The translations under genes were made by a program, and so were the position numbers. This document shows positions 20,114 through 43,593 of a DNA stretch of 64,000 nucleotides, piece by piece (the stretch's first letter is position 1; each line of letters begins with the position of its first letter). Source of the stretch: Candidatus Cloacimonadales bacterium (GTDB lineage: Bacteria > Cloacimonadota > Cloacimonadia > Cloacimonadales > JAFGVF01); NCBI GenBank assembly GCA_963677495.2, contig CAXXOU010000001.1, positions 64,001-128,000 on the forward strand, read 5' to 3'. Under the pieces are notes generated by a model, which searched no databases, had not been told where the DNA came from, and was given only the letters and a program-made list of their open reading frames with translations.

Positions 20114-21130
20114 ATGAAGAAGATTGGCTTAATGCTAGCTGTACTTACTATGTTTGGATTACTGGCAGCTCAAAATGTCCTTCTTTGGGATAACGATAAT
20201 TACTCGAGTTTCCAGGAGCCGGGTGGGGAAGATTATTTCGGTTGTGAAGTATCGCTCGGTAGAGCTCTGCTTAGCAATGGAATAAATTACACAGAAACTA
20301 ACATCCTACCGGGCAACCTTTCGCAGTACGACGCTGTCTTTGTGACGTTAGGCGTCTACTGCGTATCCTGAGGAGTCACTCCTCCGGGATCAATAGGCTC
20401 GGTCGAGCTAAATATATTAGTTAACTATTTGAACCAAGGTGGTGCCTTGTACGTTGAAGGAGTTGATTTTGTGAACGACTACTCCGATACACCACTCATG
20501 CCATATTTTGGAGTTACAATTGGTTTCAACGGCTTCCCTAATGGTATTAATCACCTCGAAGGTGTTCCAGGATCTATAGCTGATGGGCTTGATTTTAATT
20601 ACCTGTTTGGTGCTTATCCGGATTATATGGTTGATGAAATCTCCCTTGAAGGTGCAGATGCTGTACTTGTATCTCCGGATAATAATAACCGTGTAACTTC
20701 ATACGCGACACGTGAGTCTCGTACTATTGCTTCATCTATCGTTATAGGTGGAATCTATGATAGTGATGAGCATACAAAAGCGGAACTCATGAATAGATAC
20801 ATTCAATTCTTATTACCAACAACTTCAAACGACGAAAACAGTCAGCCGGTAGCAACTGCTGAACTTCATTCCGCATACCCTAATCCATTTAATCCGACTA
20901 CAACAATTAGTTTTTCACTGAAGGAAAAACAACAGTTCTCTCTTGATATCTATGATATTAAGGGTAGACATGTTACTACCCTAGCCGAAGGACTTGGTGA
21001 CAAAGGTCTTAATAGTGTTATTTGGAAAGGTATTGATTCCAACGGAAAGAGTGTCAATAGCGGGGTTTACTTCTGTAGACTTAAAACTACCGACTCTTCC
21101 TTAACGACGAAGTTAACACTTTTGAAATAA
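20114..21130 (+). CDS. Putative secreted selenoprotein (338 aa) with CxxU motif and C-terminal FlgD-Ig/T9SS-like domain; joins ORFs 20114-20371 and 20429-21130
   Basis: Both ORFs are in the same frame, separated only by TGA 20369-20371 (GVYCVS-U-GVTPPG...NYLNQGGALYVEG); SECIS-like hairpin 20394-20410; signal peptide only in the first part and YPNPFNP domain only in the second. Confidence 0.75.
20394..20410 (+). promoter_or_regulatory. Candidate bacterial SECIS element
   Basis: TA(G)GCTC-GGTC-GAGCTA hairpin; GGUC loop begins 30 nt after the UGA. Confidence 0.6.
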
Positions 21131-36070: not shown

Positions 36071-36212
36071 ATATCTTTGCTAACCGGGGGAAAAAAACAG
36101 TCAAGAGAATTGATGGAAAAATAAGTAGTTAGGGATTTATATTGACAGAGTTTTGAAATACTAAAAATTGTTTGTAAAATACGCTAAATAAAACTATATA
36201 CGGAGGTTTTTG

Positions 36213-37274
36213 ATGAGAACATGTGGAAATCGTTACGGCACACATAGAGTTGTTGAGCCACAAGGTGTTTTACCACAGCCTGCAAGAGTAGTTAACAATG
36301 ATATGACAGAGATCTGGGACAATGAAATGTTAATCGACGTAATTCGTCTTAATGTGGACTCAGCATCTTTCCATCAGATTAAAGAAAAACTTATTGCTCA
36401 GGGTCACGAGAATGATCTTGAACAGGCTTTTGCTGATCATGTTATTGATCTTACTGACAGAACAGGAAAACATAAAAATGAAGATACAGGTTCAGGCGGA
36501 ATGCTTATTGGTCGCGTATCTGCAATCGGACCTAACTTCGAAATGAAAGAGGAAGTTAAAGTTGGCGATAAAATCGCTACACTCGTATCACTTTCACTTA
36601 CTCCTCTGAAAGTAAACAAAGTAAACAAAGTTCATTTAAATAAAGATCAAGTTGATGTTGAAGGACAAGCAATTCTTTTCAGCTCAGGTATCTATGCTAA
36701 ATTACCTGAAGATATGGATGAGAACCTTGCACTTTCTATTCTTGATGTAGCCGGTGCTCCTGCACAGGTTGAAAGACTTGCAAAACCGGGTGACACAGTA
36801 GTTATCCTTGGTTCAGGTGGAAAATCAGGTATTCTTTGTAATGCAATTGCTAAAGAGAGAGTTGGTGTATCCGGTAAAGTTATTGGACTTGTACATCATG
36901 AAAACCATAAAAATGACTGCTACATTACCGGTTGTGACCATGTTGCTATTGGTGATGCAACTAATGCAGTTCAGGTTGAAGAAATTGTGCACAAAGCTAC
37001 TGATGGTAAGATGGCTGACCTTGTTGTAAACGTTGTGAACGTTGATAACACAGAGATGGCTTCAATCATGGCTTGTAAAGATAGAGGAGTGGTTTACTTC
37101 TTCTCAATGGCAACATCTTTCACAAAGGCTGCTCTTGGTGCAGAAGGTATTGGAGCTGATGTTGATATGATCCTTGGTAATGGTTATGCTCATAATCACG
37201 CAATGATCTCTATCGACCTTCTCAAGAGAAATGAAACTCTTATGAAGTTATTCAAAGAGAGATATACAGACTAA
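36213..37274 (+). CDS. kdd: L-erythro-3,5-diaminohexanoate dehydrogenase
   Basis: YGTHRVVEP.GVLPQPA, LNVDSASF, TGSGGMLIG, LDVAGAPAQ and FFSMATSFTKAALGAEG motifs; adjacent to kamA. Confidence 0.93.
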   Translation: MRTCGNRYGTHRVVEPQGVLPQPARVVNNDMTEIWDNEMLIDVIRLNVDSASFHQIKEKLIAQGHENDLEQAFADHVIDLTDRTGKHKNEDTGSGGMLIGRVSAIGPNFEMKEEVKVGDKIATLVSLSLTPLKVNKVNKVHLNKDQVDVEGQAILFSSGIYAKLPEDMDENLALSILDVAGAPAQVERLAKPGDTVVILGSGGKSGILCNAIAKERVGVSGKVIGLVHHENHKNDCYITGCDHVAIGDATNAVQVEEIVHKATDGKMADLVVNVVNVDNTEMASIMACKDRGVVYFFSMATSFTKAALGAEGIGADVDMILGNGYAHNHAMISIDLLKRNETLMKLFKERYTD

Positions 37275-37292
37275 ATATTATTAGATAGACAT

Positions 37293-37318
37293 AAAAGCTC
37301 AGGAAACTGAGCTTTTTC
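37293..37318 (+). terminator. Terminator-like hairpin between kdd and kamA
   Basis: AAAAGCTCAG-gaaa-CTGAGCTTTTT. Confidence 0.75.
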
Positions 37319-37340
37319 TATCTTTCAAAGAGGTATTAAA

Positions 37341-38609
37341 ATGATTACAGATATAAAATCAACCGCAACTGAACAGGAGTGGAACGACTGGCATTGGCAG
37401 TTGAGAAATAGAATCTCAACAGTCGAAGAGTTAAAAAAATATATCGTTCTTACTGAAGAAGAAGAAGCACTTTTTGCTGATGAAGATTTCTCATTCAGAA
37501 TGGCCATTACTCCTTACTACCTTTCACTTATCGATCATTATGATCCTAATGACCCTATCAGAAAACAGGCTATTCCTGCTATTATGGAAAGCTTCCTATC
37601 TAAAAATGATATGGCTGACCCATTGCATGAGGATGTTGATTCTCCTGCAAAAGGTCTCACACATAGATATCCGGATCGTACACTTCTCTTAGTTACAGAT
37701 CAGTGTTCAATGTATTGTCGTCACTGTACTCGCCGTCGTAAAGCCGGTGAGAATGATATGGCAATGCCTATGTCTGAAATTAATAAAGGAATTGAATATA
37801 TTAGACAGCATAAAGAAGTGCGTGATGTAATCATCAGTGGTGGCGACCCACTTACATTAGGAGAGAAGAGACTTGAAGAGATTATCTCTCAGCTTTATGA
37901 AATAGAGCATGTTGACATAATCAGAATCGGTTCCAGAACTCCTGTTGTTCAGCCACAAAGAATCACAGATGAGCTTTGTGCGATGTTTAAGAAGTATCCA
38001 CCAATTTGGTTCAATACACATTTTAATCACCCTAATGAGATTACTCCTGAGTCAAAAGAAGCTCTAAGAAAGCTCGCAGAATCAGGTGTGGTTCTTGGTA
38101 ATCAGACAGTTCTACTTAAAGGTGTAAATGATCATGTTGAGGTTATGAAAAAACTCATGCACCTTCTTGTTAAGAACCGTGTTAGACCTTATTATATTTA
38201 CCAATGTGACCTTTCTGAAGGTATTTCTCACTTCAGAACTCCAATTTCAAAAGGTATTGAGATTATTGAGTCATTGAGAGGACATACATCAGGTTTATGT
38301 GTTCCTACTTTTGTTGTAGACGCACCGGGTGGTGGTGGAAAGATTCCAGTACAGCCAAACTACATCTTATCACAGATGCCTGGAAGAGTTATTCTTCGCA
38401 ACTATGAAGGCTTCATTACAACATACACAGAACCTCAGTATCAGATACAGAAACGCGAAGATTATCGTGGATTAGTTGAAGAGGTAAGACGTTCTGATGA
38501 TGGTGTTATGAATCTTCTCTATGGTAATAATCTTTCATTTGGTCCTGAAGATACCAAACGTAATGTTCGTCAGGAACAGATTAAAGCTTTTAAAGCTAAA
38601 CAAGACTAG
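37341..38609 (+). CDS. kamA: Lysine 2,3-aminomutase (radical SAM, PLP)
   Basis: WNDWHWQ, LTHRYPDR, CSMYCRHCTRRR, RGHTSG and DAPGGGGKIP motifs. Confidence 0.96.
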   Translation: MITDIKSTATEQEWNDWHWQLRNRISTVEELKKYIVLTEEEEALFADEDFSFRMAITPYYLSLIDHYDPNDPIRKQAIPAIMESFLSKNDMADPLHEDVDSPAKGLTHRYPDRTLLLVTDQCSMYCRHCTRRRKAGENDMAMPMSEINKGIEYIRQHKEVRDVIISGGDPLTLGEKRLEEIISQLYEIEHVDIIRIGSRTPVVQPQRITDELCAMFKKYPPIWFNTHFNHPNEITPESKEALRKLAESGVVLGNQTVLLKGVNDHVEVMKKLMHLLVKNRVRPYYIYQCDLSEGISHFRTPISKGIEIIESLRGHTSGLCVPTFVVDAPGGGGKIPVQPNYILSQMPGRVILRNYEGFITTYTEPQYQIQKREDYRGLVEEVRRSDDGVMNLLYGNNLSFGPEDTKRNVRQEQIKAFKAKQD

Positions 38610-38616
38610 TTTCAAT

Positions 38617-38644
38617 GCCCCCTTTCATAGGGGGCTTTACTTCT
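38617..38644 (+). terminator. Terminator-like hairpin after kamA
   Basis: GCCCCCT-ttcat-AGGGGGC-TTT. Confidence 0.65.
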
Positions 38645-38645
38645 T

Positions 38646-39650
38646 ATGACAGCATACGATCAAATAAAACACTCTCTTTTTCCCAATGAAAGAATGGTAA
38701 TTGCAATTACCGGGCTTTCTAAGAATGCAGGGAAAACTTCTCTCCTAAATTGGTTGTTAAAGCATTTTCCACAGTATGAATATGGTTTAACAACTACCGG
38801 TAGAGATGGAGAGGAGAAGGACTTGGTTTTTGGAACCGAAAAACCAAAAGTAATCGTTTCTAAAGGAACAATAATTACGACTTTTGCTACTGAAATACAA
38901 CGTAACGCTCATTGTTATGAAGTACTTGAGAAAACAAGATTTCAGGCTGGAGGGAAGGATATTTGGATAGTACGGACAATCGCTGATTCCGAAGCTGAGA
39001 TTGTAGGCCCTGCCAGTGTAAGTGAACAACAAGAGATAATCAAAAGGCTACGCATTCTTGGAGCTAGTACCATAGTTATAGATGGTTCTTTAGATAGAAA
39101 AGCAGTTCTGTTAAATGAAAAGGTTCAAGCCATGATTATTGCTGCTGGTGCTAATTATGGTAATAGTGACTCCATTATCAAAGAACTTCGAAGATTGCAT
39201 ATTCTAAGAAATATTCCGATTGAGAGTGATGTACTAGCCAATCTGGACAATATTGCCATTTTCAAAGCTGGATGGATTCAAACAGAGTTACAGTCGTTAC
39301 TTGGAAATGAAAAGCAATTCCTTGAATTATGTCATGATCAGTATCCAGATAAGATATACATTCCAGGTGCGATTACAGGAGCAAATTGGCATAAACTTGG
39401 TAGTTTCTTTCTATCATTCCATGGGCGAGTTATAATCAGACATCCTTTTAATCTGCAGTTGAATCTAGTGAATGTCGAATTAATCTCAGAAGAGTTAGAT
39501 ATTACGACAGTCTATCCATTTATAATGAATGCAATAGCTGTGAATAGTGGGGCAATCAATGGTAATCACATAGATAGCGAGGCATTGTTAGCGGAAGTTA
39601 GAGAGTATATCCCAGAGTTACCTGTAATTGACATTATGGGCATCGAATAA
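38646..39650 (+). CDS. P-loop protein resembling the KamB-like accessory proteins of lysine fermentation clusters
   Basis: GLSKNAGKT, TTGRDGE..D and IDGSLDR motifs; lies directly after kamA. Confidence 0.65.
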   Translation: MTAYDQIKHSLFPNERMVIAITGLSKNAGKTSLLNWLLKHFPQYEYGLTTTGRDGEEKDLVFGTEKPKVIVSKGTIITTFATEIQRNAHCYEVLEKTRFQAGGKDIWIVRTIADSEAEIVGPASVSEQQEIIKRLRILGASTIVIDGSLDRKAVLLNEKVQAMIIAAGANYGNSDSIIKELRRLHILRNIPIESDVLANLDNIAIFKAGWIQTELQSLLGNEKQFLELCHDQYPDKIYIPGAITGANWHKLGSFFLSFHGRVIIRHPFNLQLNLVNVELISEELDITTVYPFIMNAIAVNSGAINGNHIDSEALLAEVREYIPELPVIDIMGIE

Positions 39651-39720: not shown

Positions 39721-40701
39721 ATGAAAAACTCGGCAGTTGTAGTTACAATTACCGATAAGGGTTATATAATACCAACCTTTATCTTGATTCTGTCACTAAA
39801 ATATTTCAAAGTACAAGCACATGTAAATGTACTTTGTGTTGGATTATCTGAAGCAGAGAAGAAGCTATTCTCTCAATTTGAGGATGTGAATACTTTTGAT
39901 GCTGATTTGGATAACCATCGCAATCCAACCACTCGAAAAGCAGAAGCTATATTAACAGCTAAAGATGGTGGTTATGAGATGATAAGCTTATTTGACGGAG
40001 ACTGTATAGTAACAGGAGACATAACTCCATTCTTCAGACAAGATGAGCCGTCCTTATCTGCTAGATTCAAATCACCCAAAGAGGATGGTTGGGTGTTCTC
40101 AAAGTATTATCAACCCGATGATATATATGGATACATACCCAAAGTTATACTTGAGCAATGGAAGATGGATGTTGGAGAATCTGAAACACCACGAAGGAAG
40201 AACACAGTTGCTGGAGGTAATCTATCAATTCATAAAGACTACTTATGGTTTATCGATAAGTGGCATACACAAATGATGAAAGTACTTCCTAATTACAACA
40301 CGGGTGTTGCATATGATTACTCACTAACAGCTTATTCTCAACTGGATGAATCAGTGCTAAACTCACTTCTTACTTTTGCTGATAAAGTACCCCCATTAAC
40401 AGCAGGTAAATTTGATACTGATCCAAACATTTATTTAGCTCATCTAGGTCCTGGACGACCTAGATACTGGAAGCGATTCCCTAAAAGAAAACTTGTCTAT
40501 CTTGACTCAATACTTACTTTTATTAAATGGGGAAGAGAGAAAGGATATAGCTTCCCAATACTTTCTTGGCCTTTAAACCCGAAGTTGCGACTGTTTACAA
40601 AGGCTATTGCATATCTTTTCGAGACTAAAGAACTTGCCAAAAAGATAGTAAAAAAGATTTTGATTATCCTACATTTAAGAAAATATCAGGAGGAGATTTG
40701 A
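39721..40701 (+). CDS. Glycosyltransferase family 8-like protein
   Basis: VVTITDKGY, DxD motif (FDGDCIV), DESVLN. Confidence 0.55.
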   Translation: MKNSAVVVTITDKGYIIPTFILILSLKYFKVQAHVNVLCVGLSEAEKKLFSQFEDVNTFDADLDNHRNPTTRKAEAILTAKDGGYEMISLFDGDCIVTGDITPFFRQDEPSLSARFKSPKEDGWVFSKYYQPDDIYGYIPKVILEQWKMDVGESETPRRKNTVAGGNLSIHKDYLWFIDKWHTQMMKVLPNYNTGVAYDYSLTAYSQLDESVLNSLLTFADKVPPLTAGKFDTDPNIYLAHLGPGRPRYWKRFPKRKLVYLDSILTFIKWGREKGYSFPILSWPLNPKLRLFTKAIAYLFETKELAKKIVKKILIILHLRKYQEEI

Positions 40702-40709
40702 TAGAAGAA

Positions 40710-41357
40710 ATGAAAAGAGTAATCATCTTTTTTTTCATGATTATGGGTGGATCGATTTTATTTAGTGCTGGTAGCCATTCATGTTGAGGACCTCCACCTA
40801 AATATGTCGAGTTCGACAATGGAGTTAAGGTTCTTACCAGTGAGTTGTCAAAATACGAAAAAGCTTTTACAGGATGGGAACTAGAGAATGGAGAGTTAAC
40901 AGGTAAAAAGATTAAGTTCATTCAAGTAGCAACAAGTGCTAATGGAAAACACCTGTTTGTTGAACATAGCAAGCTAGATCATTTTTCACGTTATAGTGGA
41001 ATCAAACTTAAAGCGAAGAGATATTTTAAAGCCTTGTTAAAGGGAAAAATAGAAGCTAGGTCCATAAGTACATCCCTTAGGAAATTTGACAACTATGGTT
41101 TTGTATCAAGAGAAGTAAAACTCGCTGATGGTGTTAACTTGTTTGTTTTTTCTAATGAATCCAAAAAAGGTTTAGCTATTCAGGGTCCTAATTCACTCTA
41201 CTTTGATTTCTTTCCCGCTAATAACAGTGAGTTGATAAATAAGATAACCGATATGTTGATTGAATCTAATTTAACTGTTGCGAAAGAACCTCAGAACAAC
41301 TATATTAGTTTACGAGATATAGGAATATCAAAAAAATTTAAGGAAAACTTACAATGA
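40710..41357 (+). CDS. Putative exported selenoprotein, paralog A (215 aa; UGA at codon 26, C-U motif)
   Basis: MKRVIIFFFMIMGGSILFSAGSHSC-TGA(40785-40787)-GPPPKYVEF... in frame with ORF 40845-41357; hairpin TGTCG-AGTT-CGACA. Confidence 0.75.
40792..40824 (+). promoter_or_regulatory. Candidate SECIS element A
   Basis: Upper stem TGTCG-AGTT-CGACA (40805-40818), lower stem CTCCA/TGGAG; loop starts at +23 after the UGA. Confidence 0.65.
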
Positions 41358-41971
41358 AGAGAACTATCATTTTATCTATTCTAATAGCATATGCTATTAG
41401 CTTATTTGGAGCCGGTTGAGCTCCACCATCGTTTATTACCGGGTCCGGTAATGACCAGAAACATATCGTTTCAGAATTTGAAATGGTACAACACTCAGTG
41501 ACAAAAGACCCCACTGCCCCGGGTGGTATGAAAGAAGAAGTAACAGTAATCGTTAATCTAACAAAGGATGAAAAGACATTAATTTTCCCACATGATAAGC
41601 TTACTAAAAGGACAAAACTGGTTGGTAGTAAAGGGAAAGCATTGAATCTTCTGAACTCAGTCAAAAAGCAGACAAAGATTTGGTCTACTTGTGAATCCAT
41701 AAGAACAATAAGTGCCATCGGGACTGTGAATAAAGAGATTATCATGAATGATAATACAGAAATTCTTCTAATAGATAAAGAGAATAAGCCTTATGGATTA
41801 GCTATCAAGAAAGCTGATGGACTAGCGTTTGATTTCTTTGCACTAGAGTCAGATTATGGTGATATACTAAAAGCAGTTTATAAAAAACTCAATGACTATT
41901 CTCCTGCAGATTGTGGTTCATGTCGGAGAGAAACGATTGACTTTAGAGGATTAGGAACCAGCATCAAGTGA
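41354..41971 (+). CDS. Putative exported selenoprotein, paralog B (205 aa; UGA at codon 22)
   Basis: ATGA overlap with A; MKRTIILSILIAYAISLFGAG-TGA(41417-41419)-APPSFITGSGND... in frame with ORF 41483-41971; 9-bp hairpin with GGTC loop. Confidence 0.8.
41433..41454 (+). promoter_or_regulatory. Candidate SECIS element B
   Basis: TTATTACCG-GGTC-CGGTAATGA; loop starts at +23 after the UGA. Confidence 0.75.
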
Positions 41972-42579
41972 TTGCTTTAGTGACACTCTTAATCTTGTGG
42001 TCAGTTTCTACTTCAGTTTTTGGTAGTAATTGAATGCCTTCGTCTTCTATTATCGGTTTCGGTAATAGCGAATATGAATTTATCAAATCAGATTTTGAGG
42101 ATATAGAATACAAAGAGATTACTGTAACCGGTGCCAGTACCTATGTTAAAGAGAAGGTAACAGTATACGTTAACCCGACTACAAATGGAAAGACACTGAT
42201 TCACGGACATAAGAAGTTAAAAAAGAAAACGCAGTTATATGGATCAAAACTGAGAGCAGTATCTCTGCTTAGTGAGATTGCAAAAAGTAGATCAGTACAA
42301 ACCTATTTTGAATCAAAACGTGTAATTGATGATTATGGAATAGTCTACAAGGAAGTGACGATGAATGATTCAACAATGGTACTTCTATTTGAACCCAAGG
42401 AAGAATCTGTTAGCATTGCATTGAAACCTAAAGATGGAAAAGTCTTTAACTATTTTTCATCAGCTAAGGACTATAAAGGATTGATTGAAAGAGTGTATAA
42501 TAGATTGAATCTCATGGGTCCGAATGAGATGACCACAAAGCAAAAAATGGCTATTGATTTTAGAGGATTAGGAGAATAA
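41968..42579 (+). CDS. Putative exported selenoprotein, paralog C (203 aa; UGA at codon 22)
   Basis: GTGA overlap with B; MIALVTLLILWSVSTSVFGSN-TGA(42031-42033)-MPSSSIIGFGN... in frame with ORF 42034-42579; 9-bp hairpin. Confidence 0.72.
42047..42068 (+). promoter_or_regulatory. Candidate SECIS element C
   Basis: CTATTATCG-GTTT-CGGTAATAG; loop starts at +23 after the UGA. Confidence 0.7.
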
Positions 42580-43593
42580 CTAATCCTCTTTTTTTAATGT
42601 TCTTGTCATTAAAGATTTTATTGCTTCTAACGGATTCTTTTCATTAAAAAGTACTTCGTGCACCTGCTCTGTGATTGGCATCTCGACATCATACTTCTTA
42701 CTAAGAGCATAAACTGAAATAGTAGAATCTACTCCCTCTGCAACCATCTTCATAGTTTCCAGGATTTGGTTAAGAGTCTTACCACTTCCTATCTCAAAAC
42801 CTACATATCTATTACGACTGTGTTTGCTCATTGCTGTCGTTATGAGGTCTCCTATGCCAGATAAACCTAAAAAGGTTTCCGGGTTTGCTCCCATTACTTT
42901 ACCTAGACGCTTAACTTCAGCAACACCTCTTGTTAATAAAGCTCCCATAGTATTGTCACCTAACCCAAGACCTTCTGTGATTCCTGCAGCGATAGCAATA
43001 ATATTCTTAACAGCACCACCAAGCTCTACTCCCATTAGATCATTGGAGCTATATACTCTGAAGTAGTTATTACTGAAGGTATTTTGTACAAGCTTCTGGT
43101 TATCTTTTGTTGATCCGGCAATCACAACAGCAGTTGATACTTCTTTAGCTACTTCTTCTGCATGACTTGGACCCGAAAGTGTCATTATTTTCTCACTACT
43201 AAGTACAGTTAAGGACTCACTTAGAACTTCAGACATTCGTTTTAATGATTGCTTTTCAACCCCTTTAGCTACATTGATAACAGCTTCAATTCCATTGGAT
43301 TTTAAGAGTAGTGGATTCACTTGTTCAGCAACTTTCCTTAGAACCTGTGAAGGAACAGCAAAAAGAAGGATGTCGAACTCTCCGGTAACAACATCATCAA
43401 GGTTATTACTAAAACAGATAGTCTCATCGAGATGGATACCGGGAAGAAAAACGGTATTAGTGTGTGTGTGTATGAGCTCATCGGCTCTTTCTTTATCAAA
43501 TTCCCAAACCTTCACTTCATGTCCATTAACAGCTAAAAGGTTAGCTAATGCCAAACCCCAGCTACCACCACCGATTACTCTAACTCTTTGCAT
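42580..43593 (-). CDS. gpsA: NAD(P)H-dependent glycerol-3-phosphate dehydrogenase
   Basis: GGGSWG, LSGPSHAEEV, GVELGGAVKNIIAIAAG and GIGDLITT...SRNR motifs. Confidence 0.97.
   Translation of the reverse strand: MQRVRVIGGGSWGLALANLLAVNGHEVKVWEFDKERADELIHTHTNTVFLPGIHLDETICFSNNLDDVVTGEFDILLFAVPSQVLRKVAEQVNPLLLKSNGIEAVINVAKGVEKQSLKRMSEVLSESLTVLSSEKIMTLSGPSHAEEVAKEVSTAVVIAGSTKDNQKLVQNTFSNNYFRVYSSNDLMGVELGGAVKNIIAIAAGITEGLGLGDNTMGALLTRGVAEVKRLGKVMGANPETFLGLSGIGDLITTAMSKHSRNRYVGFEIGSGKTLNQILETMKMVAEGVDSTISVYALSKKYDVEMPITEQVHEVLFNEKNPLEAIKSLMTRTLKKED

Follow-up and report, generated by a model that had tools for sequence, protein, structure and literature searches.

Selenoprotein catalogues rest mainly on pairs of homologues with selenocysteine (Sec) or Cys at the same position and on curated family models, and nearly all selenoproteins have Cys homologues, according to a review (PMC13188914). 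The consensus for the bacterial selenocysteine insertion sequence (bSECIS) given in the legend of its Figure 2 is a hairpin with a loop of 3-9 nt, a stem of 4-16 bp, a G in the first two loop positions, a spacing of 16-37 nt from the UGA and a minimum free energy (MFE) of -7.5 kcal/mol or lower. SaoB, SaoC, SaoL and HgcA are described, in a preprint (Haft, bioRxiv 10.1101/2022.07.06.499078), as typically truncated at the UGA in databases. The same source reports that SaoB and SaoC have signal sequences and that SaoC (~158 aa) has no family model or solved structure, and it proposes that the vicinal C-U or C-C motifs of the SAO system and HgcA bind metals or organometals. Here we analyse three genes, named A, B and C, which lie head to tail on the + strand at positions 40710-42579 of a stretch of 64,000 nucleotides (the window) from a Candidatus Cloacimonadales bacterium. 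From their sequences and genomic setting they probably encode exported selenoproteins in which an in-frame UGA is read as Sec.

Three tandem genes with an in-frame UGA and their relatives

The source genome (G000) has 3.4 Mb in 4 contigs (C1-C4) and a completeness of 99.46%; the window corresponds to C1:64001-128000. Coordinates are window positions unless a contig is named and the features are collected in Table 1. Each of the three genes has a start codon, 21-25 hydrophobic codons, a single in-frame TGA and a body of ~180 residues. The open reading frames (ORFs) defined with translation table 11 are only their 3' parts, starting at TTG 40845, ATG 41483 and ATG 42034. The first-pass annotation had extended these ORFs upstream through a single TGA into a hydrophobic N-terminus, and all its coordinates and junction peptides are correct. 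It had also expected standard gene callers to miss the full genes, and the databases indeed hold the family as N-terminally truncated proteins of 162-181 residues. A and B end in stop codons that share nucleotides with the next start codon, TGA 41355-57 with the ATG of B (ATGA) and TGA 41969-71 with the GTG of C (GTGA), so that TGA is also a working terminator in this operon. No SECIS-type hairpin is found downstream from these two terminal TGAs, which act as ordinary stops. The stretch occurs in contigs of four sequencing runs (one sample, one study) with a word share of 1.00, which for contigs of a single sample argues against an assembly error.

The read-through proteins are paralogs (identity of 28% for A/B, 23% for A/C and 39% for B/C) whose TGAs fall in one alignment column. 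The homology of the bodies, the motifs named in them and the alignment of the TGAs had been read correctly in the first pass. A six-frame search of 232 genomes of the phylum with a profile built from the three proteins matched three genomes of one genus: G000 and the sister species genomes G113 and G111. G113 has a B-like gene fused directly to a C-like domain in one frame of 373 codons (L016 982-2103, - strand), located at the syntenic site within the order kamB-like gene, 326-aa gene, family, convergent gpsA. The B-like part has a putative signal peptide, a TGA at codon 21 and a 9-bp hairpin with a GGUC loop; the C-like domain has lost these three elements jointly. The single signal peptide and single UGA of this fusion hint that B and C act together; a complex prediction for B and C, prompted by the fusion and run without controls, scored 0.00 and gave no verdict. 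G111 has, likewise at the syntenic site, one B-like gene of 143 codons with a putative signal peptide, a TGA at codon 21 and a GGUC loop. TGA thus occupies the same column in each of the five copies that retain an N-terminal segment (A, B, C, G113 and G111), and the whole TGA segment is gone from the sixth domain, the C-like part of G113. Trp, Gly or a variable residue at this position was not seen in any homologue. TGA is therefore kept at the aligned codon in both orthologs, as had been anticipated, and the TGA/Cys pairs that had also been anticipated were not found. A fourth genome of the genus, G112, is 72% complete and its contig breaks off within the kamB-like gene, immediately ahead of the expected site of the family; G103, of another genus, has a different gene after kamB.

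A HMMER profile search of 1.84 billion cluster representatives gave 6 matches, all members of the family in their table-11 truncated forms. One is a further B-like protein of 166 aa (P0008), known from its protein sequence alone. A word-indexed search of 5.8 billion clusters returned B itself only, two scans of metagenome contigs found no relative, and a scan of genome contigs for relatives found G113 only. No publication on the family was found in a literature search to which the supplementary tables of selenoproteome surveys were not visible. A 2026 review of prokaryotic selenoproteomes has no mention of "Cloacimon", "secreted" or "periplasm".

Proposed decoding of the UGA codon

In the five copies a start codon and a hydrophobic peptide free of Asp and Glu precede the TGA in frame with the body. 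The peptides of A, B, C, G113 and G111 have 25, 21, 21, 20 and 20 codons, differing by whole codons between strongly diverged DNA sequences, and in G113 and G111 an AGGAG sequence is found 6 nt ahead of the ATG of this peptide. The hydrophobic frame could instead be a mini-gene, a small upstream ORF ending at the TGA, with the body translated from a downstream start and the hairpin serving translational coupling or mRNA stability. This would agree with the starts picked by gene callers, with the TGAATG sequence of C, which is a common coupling arrangement, and with the coupling of these genes through ATGA/GTGA overlaps elsewhere in the operon. It does not explain, however, why the peptide stays in frame with the body in all five copies in spite of its length changes, and no Shine-Dalgarno-like sequence was found ahead of the downstream starts of A and B. 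Furthermore, the 11 codons past the TGA, upstream of any start of A or B, evolve like coding sequence: 6 differ between B of G000 and its G111 ortholog, 4 of them synonymously and 2 not. In G113 the first in-frame ATG, GTG or TTG comes 77 codons past the TGA and the intervening codons encode strands of the conserved domain, so the body is not translatable without read-through. We regard the upstream ORF explanation as unlikely.

Translation through the UGA might also occur without Sec, by near-cognate Trp or Cys insertion or by leaky termination stimulated by the hairpin. G113 requires read-through of whatever kind, and no Cys-form homologue that would anchor the reading as Sec was found in the collections searched. 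The genome, on the other hand, has a complete Sec system with selenoproteins. Its tRNA-Sec (57.1 bits, above the Rfam cut-off; tRNA-SeC(tca) for ARAGORN) is the sole tRNA with a UCA anticodon among 50 tRNAs identified by ARAGORN, and tRNA-Trp has the anticodon CCA. A Cloacimonetes-type tRNA-Sec with a 7+5 stem has been described in a review, and SelB of E. coli may therefore be unsuitable for it. A selA gene (534.8 bits) adjoins a 649-aa frame with a SelB wing domain (36.3 bits), and selD (381.3 bits; L011, C1:618556-619476) has itself one in-frame TGA (A-G-U-G-A-K). The machinery whose presence the first-pass annotation had asked to confirm (selA, selB, selD and tRNA-Sec) is thus all present, and selB and tRNA-Sec are found as well in the three other genomes of the genus (G113, G111 and G112). 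Within a few hundred bases of these sites, moreover, TGA is the true stop of A and B. The hairpin geometry and the GGUC and AGUU loops match those of the in-frame-TGA genes for a peroxiredoxin and for proteins with the sorting tail of the type IX secretion system (T9SS; see below). Decoding without Sec appears even less likely than an upstream ORF. A genome-wide recoding of TGA as a sense codon was rejected on the grounds of the TGA stops of A and B, the CCA anticodon of tRNA-Trp and the identity of the sole UCA tRNA.

All three UGAs of the locus are followed by a hairpin (Table 1). With the U of UGA as nucleotide 1, the stem is formed by nt 17-25 and 30-38 and the tetraloop by nt 26-29, ~22-23 nt from the UGA. 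The first-pass annotation had placed tetraloops AGTT, GGTC and GTTT 23 nt after the TGA and had listed stem changes between B and C (U-A to C-G, U-G to U-A and C-G to U-G); the geometry holds in A, B and C and the changes are as listed. A forms only the inner 5 bp of this stem, and its core sits in a longer irregular stem (40785-40836) that reaches back to the UGA, with -17.1 kcal/mol over 60 nt. The bSECIS consensus quoted above from a figure legend is satisfied by the hairpins of B, C and G113 (-9.0 kcal/mol), and by A only through its extended stem. None of 200 shuffled sequences folded as well as the C hairpin, and for the 60-nt folds the z-scores, at -2.0, -1.6 and -1.2, are modest. Perfect tetraloop hairpins occur in G000 at 0.30/kb for stems of at least 9 bp and at 9.3/kb for stems of at least 5 bp. 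A 5-bp hairpin with an [AG]GU[CU] tetraloop 20-34 nt after any TGA is found for 2.2 per 1000 TGAs, and control triplets give values that are no lower.

In the alignment of the five copies 86.7% of the cells pair and RNAalifold returns the same helix. Changes on both sides are seen in 4 of the 9 pairs, a number reached by 9 of 500 shuffles, and controls slid along the alignment all gave 0-1. Among codons for unchanged amino acids, the nucleotides are identical in 18 of 21 within the hairpin as against 140 of 290 elsewhere, counts that sum four non-independent pairwise comparisons. The expected conservation of the hairpin is therefore borne out by compensatory changes and, as far as the published legend defines it, by agreement of A, B, C and G113 with the consensus; the G111 hairpin, which barely folds, does not agree with it.

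The TGAs might alternatively be nonsense mutations inherited in decaying genes of a fast-evolving, dispensable cluster, which would yield truncated products or none. The restriction of the family to one genus, its varying copy number (3, 2 fused and 1) and the internal deletion and weakened hairpin of G111 are in keeping with such a fate. However, the same codon is TGA in paralogs that are 23-39% identical and in three species, both of its flanks are open and in frame with a signal-peptide-like sequence upstream, and not a single further stop or frameshift is found in any copy. Of these three rival explanations, decay is the one to which we attach the least probability.

A number of observations weigh against decoding as Sec or against the export that goes with it. 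Only five TGA copies are known, from three related species of one genus, and no Cys-form homologue was found among the 1.84 billion representatives, the 5.8 billion clusters and the 232 genomes of the phylum. The C-like domain of G113 is the same fold existing without Sec. In the G111 ortholog ~60 residues are deleted from within the domain. A C-A mismatch weakens its hairpin (-2.7 kcal/mol, z of +0.43), which fails the bSECIS consensus of the legend and is missing from the MFE structure of the 60-nt region (-5.5). A Rfam scan of 40600-42700 with E up to 10 gave only chance matches (microRNA, long non-coding RNA) and no SECIS family. In A ~16 nt separate the Shine-Dalgarno sequence from the ATG, and no RNA run is found among the sequencing runs whose contigs contain the stretch. 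Signal peptides were judged by charge and hydrophobicity, and cleavage sites by eye. C starts with GTG, has an n-region without Lys or Arg and carries an ATG directly after its TGA; for C alone, these features would permit a small upstream ORF followed by re-initiation. Set against these points, the selenoprotein reading of the first pass is supported by the machinery, by conservation of the TGA in two sister species, by the hairpin and by the need for read-through in G113.

The predicted proteins, their possible role and their surroundings

Cleavable type I signal peptides have a positively charged n-region, an h-region of some 10-15 hydrophobic residues and small side chains close to the cleavage site. 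The N-terminal peptides of A, B, G113 and G111 have 1-2 Lys/Arg in the first 5 residues, no Asp or Glu and a mean Kyte-Doolittle hydropathy of 2.4-2.9 (2 Lys/Arg and 2.61 over residues 4-17 for A; 2 Lys/Arg and 2.42 for B). The N-terminus of C, without Lys or Arg and with a mean of 1.97, is the weakest of the five. Lipoboxes are of the L-[AS]-[GA]-C type with an invariant Cys. Lipoproteins with Sec in place of that Cys were considered and rejected: the pattern fits two of the five junctions (FGAG and FASG) and not the other three (FAQ, GSN and HSC). The arm that follows the signal peptide reads U-x-P-P in A, B and the orthologs and U-M-P-S in C. At the other end a motif [IL]-[DS]-[FL]-R-[GD]-[LMI]-G is found a few residues before the stop in 7 of 7 sequences and could be a sorting or assembly signal. 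The only Cys of A directly precedes Sec (C-U-G) and C has none; in the B type alone, STCES contributes a Cys and a CxxC (ADCGSC in B) lies close to the C-terminus.

An AlphaFold2 (AF2) model of B built from 6 sequences has a mean predicted local distance difference test score (pLDDT) of 75.3 and a predicted template modelling score (pTM) of 0.72. Residues 1-36 fall below 50 and the rest is modelled as a beta-rich domain with two long helices. Searches with A, B and C identified no Pfam family at E up to 1 and nothing significant in NCBIfam (best E 0.057, with 13 bits where the cut-off is 335); the best PHROGs match, to a family of unknown function, was not significant either (E 0.0031). A profile search of PDB gave 0 matches, Foldseek found no PDB structure at E <=1e-3 (weak polo-box rows at E ~0.09), and VIA-align over 48,161 chains gave a best Z of 3.8. 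The ESM Atlas, queried with the table-11 ORF of B, returned a best score of 0.81 to unnamed clusters and no lead. The first-pass annotation had likewise been unable to place the fold in a known selenoprotein family. With no significant match in sequence or structure the fold is not assigned, which does not imply that it is novel.

During translation the hairpin located 13-35 nt past the UGA, with its tetraloop at nt 26-29, would recruit SelB-GTP-Sec-tRNASec, and Sec would be inserted instead of termination. This recruitment step is suggested by the anatomy of the genes, the machinery and the conservation. The preprotein would then leave through the general secretory translocon and signal peptidase would cut just before Sec. 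Thereby the selenol would come to lie on a disordered arm, ~1-7 residues away from the new N-terminus, if export and cleavage proceed as predicted. It is the protein family that is new, and it matches no curated model; the recoding mechanism is the ordinary bacterial one.

By analogy with the vicinal C-U motifs discussed by Haft and with the tail of thioredoxin reductase, the arm may tentatively be viewed as a mobile selenol serving extracytoplasmic redox or metal(loid) chemistry. Its partner would be the vicinal Cys in A (C-U-G) and the conserved C-terminal CxxC in the B type. A more speculative proposal is that this is an obligate-Sec family, lacking a Cys form altogether, in which the cut by signal peptidase leaves the sole conserved chalcogen at the tip of a protein exported by a strict anaerobe. 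Its proline-stiffened N-terminal selenol arm might serve to capture metals, metalloids or organometals, or might join the paralogs to one another or to the envelope through Se-S or Se-Se links, and the glycosyltransferase-like enzyme encoded upstream (see below) might assist or modify it. The paralogs offer a natural series for such questions, with a lone Sec (C), a vicinal Cys-Sec pair (A) and Sec plus a distal CxxC (B). The practical gain is a corrected annotation of these metagenome-assembled genomes.

Other genes of G000 have an in-frame TGA with comparable surroundings, and a genome-wide count of them is the strongest argument for the Sec reading. The genome was scanned for TGAs that have open frames on both sides, the upstream one with a start codon, and are followed by an [AG]GU[CU] tetraloop on a stem of at least 5 bp at nt 20-34. 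Twelve sites were found, which include a Sec-peroxiredoxin, three T9SS-tailed proteins, A and B; the other six look like noise. The stem of B is the longest among the 12, and in a looser scan (41 sites) B ranks 2 and C ranks 3. The peroxiredoxin (C1:302147; L022 78-791, - strand) reads F-T-F-V-U-A-T-E, with an AGUU loop at nt 21 and an AhpC-TSA match of 132.6 bits. Two T9SS-tailed proteins with a signal-like N-terminus (C4:348629 and C4:1359026) have U-G-x-C-P soon after it and a GGUC loop at nt 28; on sequence grounds we read their UGA as replacing the first Cys of a thioredoxin-type motif. The third lies within the window (20114-21127) and has a hairpin with a GGUC loop at 33 nt from the UGA; in each of the 12 genomes of the taxonomic family, the homologs of its N-terminal domain contain exactly one in-frame TGA. 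Besides SelD and the peroxiredoxin, all recognised in-frame-TGA genes of G000 have a signal-like N-terminus. No full match to GrdA (PF04723), GrdB (PF07355) or FdhA (TIGR01591) was found in G000. These findings pose the question of which role selenium has beyond the cytoplasm in anaerobic fermenters.

Three further observations were made in the same genome. A TGA near C3:85856 (- strand) has 227 open codons upstream and 465 downstream, in the context L-Y-C-D-Y-G-U-F-E-P-Y-P-W, with a GC-rich bulged hairpin (GUU/GGUUC loop) ~25 nt farther on; either a further selenoprotein or a pair of neighbouring genes may be present here. An identical ORF of 511 codons occurs six times with the same upstream in-frame TGA context (C4:986365, 198490, 699208, 357065 and 54390; C3:342997; strand-wise) and is probably an insertion-sequence transposase family. 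ARAGORN also reports one tRNA-Cys with anticodon ACA besides the usual GCA, an uncommon finding in bacteria that is perhaps a miscall.

The gene immediately upstream from A (39721-40701) codes for a protein without a Pfam match itself that is 36% identical to a second genomic copy (C3:333252-334067; L039). The latter matches PF01501 (Glyco_transf_8; 27.2 bits for a cut-off of 24.3) and is located in a Wzy_C/GT4 (glycosyltransferase family 4) cluster. The AF2 model of the 39721-40701 protein (pLDDT of 85.9) retrieves glycogenin, WbbM, LgtC and GlyE with Foldseek (E from 1.4e-7); judged by this model, its product is a GT-A glycosyltransferase of family 8 (GT8) type. The copy in the polysaccharide cluster is present in all 12 genomes of the taxonomic family, while the divergent duplicate is genus-specific, with close copies only in G113 (79% identity) and G111 (71% identity). 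The GT8-like paralog and the selenoprotein genes occur together in the three genomes where the region is assembled. This module, found in one genus only, is inserted between lysine-fermentation genes and gpsA. The lysine-fermentation row also includes a kamB-like reactivase subunit (186 bits, below the cut-off of 210).

Table 1. Position of the A, B and C genes, their putative recoding elements and other features of the source genome (window positions unless a locus or contig is given)
Feature	Position	Strand	Remarks
Gene A	40710..41357	+	ATG start; 215 codons + stop; one UGA inside; profile match of 298 bits with 1 TGA
Predicted signal peptide of A	40710..40784	+	25 codons; ends SHSC before the putative Sec codon
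UGA (putative Sec), codon 26 of A	40785..40787	+	C-U-G motif with Cys25
SECIS-like hairpin core of A	40805..40818	+	5 bp; loop AGUU 40810-40813; core -5.3 kcal/mol
C-terminal motif of A	~41300-41320	+	a few residues before the stop
Gene B	41354..41971	+	ATG start; 205 codons + stop; one UGA inside
Predicted signal peptide of B	41354..41416	+	21 codons
UGA (putative Sec), codon 22 of B	41417..41419	+	aligned codon is TGA in the G113 and G111 orthologs
SECIS-like hairpin of B	41433..41454	+	9 bp; loop GGUC 41442-41445; -8.9 kcal/mol
C-terminal motif of B	41944-41965	+	a few residues before the stop
Gene C	41968..42579	+	GTG start; 203 codons + stop; one UGA inside; no Cys
Hydrophobic N-terminus of C	41968..42030	+	21 codons; no Lys/Arg
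UGA (putative Sec), codon 22 of C	42031..42033	+	ATG directly 3' of the UGA
SECIS-like hairpin of C	42047..42068	+	9 bp; loop GUUU 42056-42059; -7.9 kcal/mol
C-terminal motif of C	42556-42576	+	a few residues before the stop
GT8-like glycosyltransferase paralog	39721..40701	+	stop 8 nt before the ATG of A
Lysine-fermentation gene row	36210-39650	+	3,5-diaminohexanoate dehydrogenase (kdd) 239 bits; lysine 2,3-aminomutase 583 bits
Candidate selenoprotein, T9SS-tailed	20114-21127; TGA 20369-20371	+	signal-like N-terminus; Y-C-V-S-U-G (CxxU); Por_Secre_tail PF18962 38.8 bits
T9SS-tailed protein, 962 aa	L023 47-2932 = G000 C4:~345.8-348.7 kb	-	U-G-x-C-P
T9SS-tailed protein, 621 aa	L024 64-1926 = G000 C4:~1357.3-1359.1 kb	-	U-G-x-C-P

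Comparison with known selenoproteins

A, B and C share with canonical bacterial selenoprotein genes (E. coli fdhF; the Zhang and Gladyshev consensus as given in PMC13188914) the in-frame UGA, a hairpin directly downstream, a G in the first two loop positions, a spacing within 16-37 nt and a genome with selA, selB, selC and selD. They differ from them in being orphans without Cys relatives found and in having the putative Sec 21-25 codons from the start, at the signal junction. Since it lacks a known Cys form and a model and has its UGA so close to the start, the family escapes both routes by which the catalogues are built.

The likeness to the SAO system and HgcA, as these are described in the preprint (10.1101/2022.07.06.499078), lies in the truncation of database entries, the signal sequences and the C-U motif of copy A. 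No sequence relationship is apparent (none significant in NCBIfam) and B and C lack a vicinal Cys. The predicted position of Sec is at the mature N-terminus, not internal or C-terminal, and the locus has neither an ABC-transporter nor a MerB-like context. The same source required at least 10 examples per family, whereas the present family has five.

Closer at hand are the peroxiredoxin and the three T9SS-tailed genes of the same genome. They have the AGUU and GGUC tetraloops in common with the family, carried in their case on stems of 5-7 bp at 21-33 nt from the UGA; the SECIS loop of E. coli fdhF contains GGUC as well. The nucleotide after the UGA is G in all four and in 4 of the 5 copies of the family, and signal-like N-terminal peptides are present in three of the four. 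Only the peroxiredoxin has a Pfam family covering the Sec position (AhpC-TSA), the other three being matched in their C-terminal tail and immunoglobulin-like domains. The U-G-x-C-P and C-x-x-U motifs of the latter look, from their sequence, like thiol-oxidoreductase motifs. Sec lies inside the chain in this set, in contrast to the N-terminal tip in A, B and C, to which these proteins are not homologous.

Mammalian thioredoxin reductase carries its redox center in a Gly-Cys-Sec-Gly tail. The arm of copy A is N-terminal instead of C-terminal and belongs to a protein without a flavoprotein domain, but its S-C-U-G sequence would present, as an analogy only, the same vicinal Cys-Sec pair on a flexible terminal arm.

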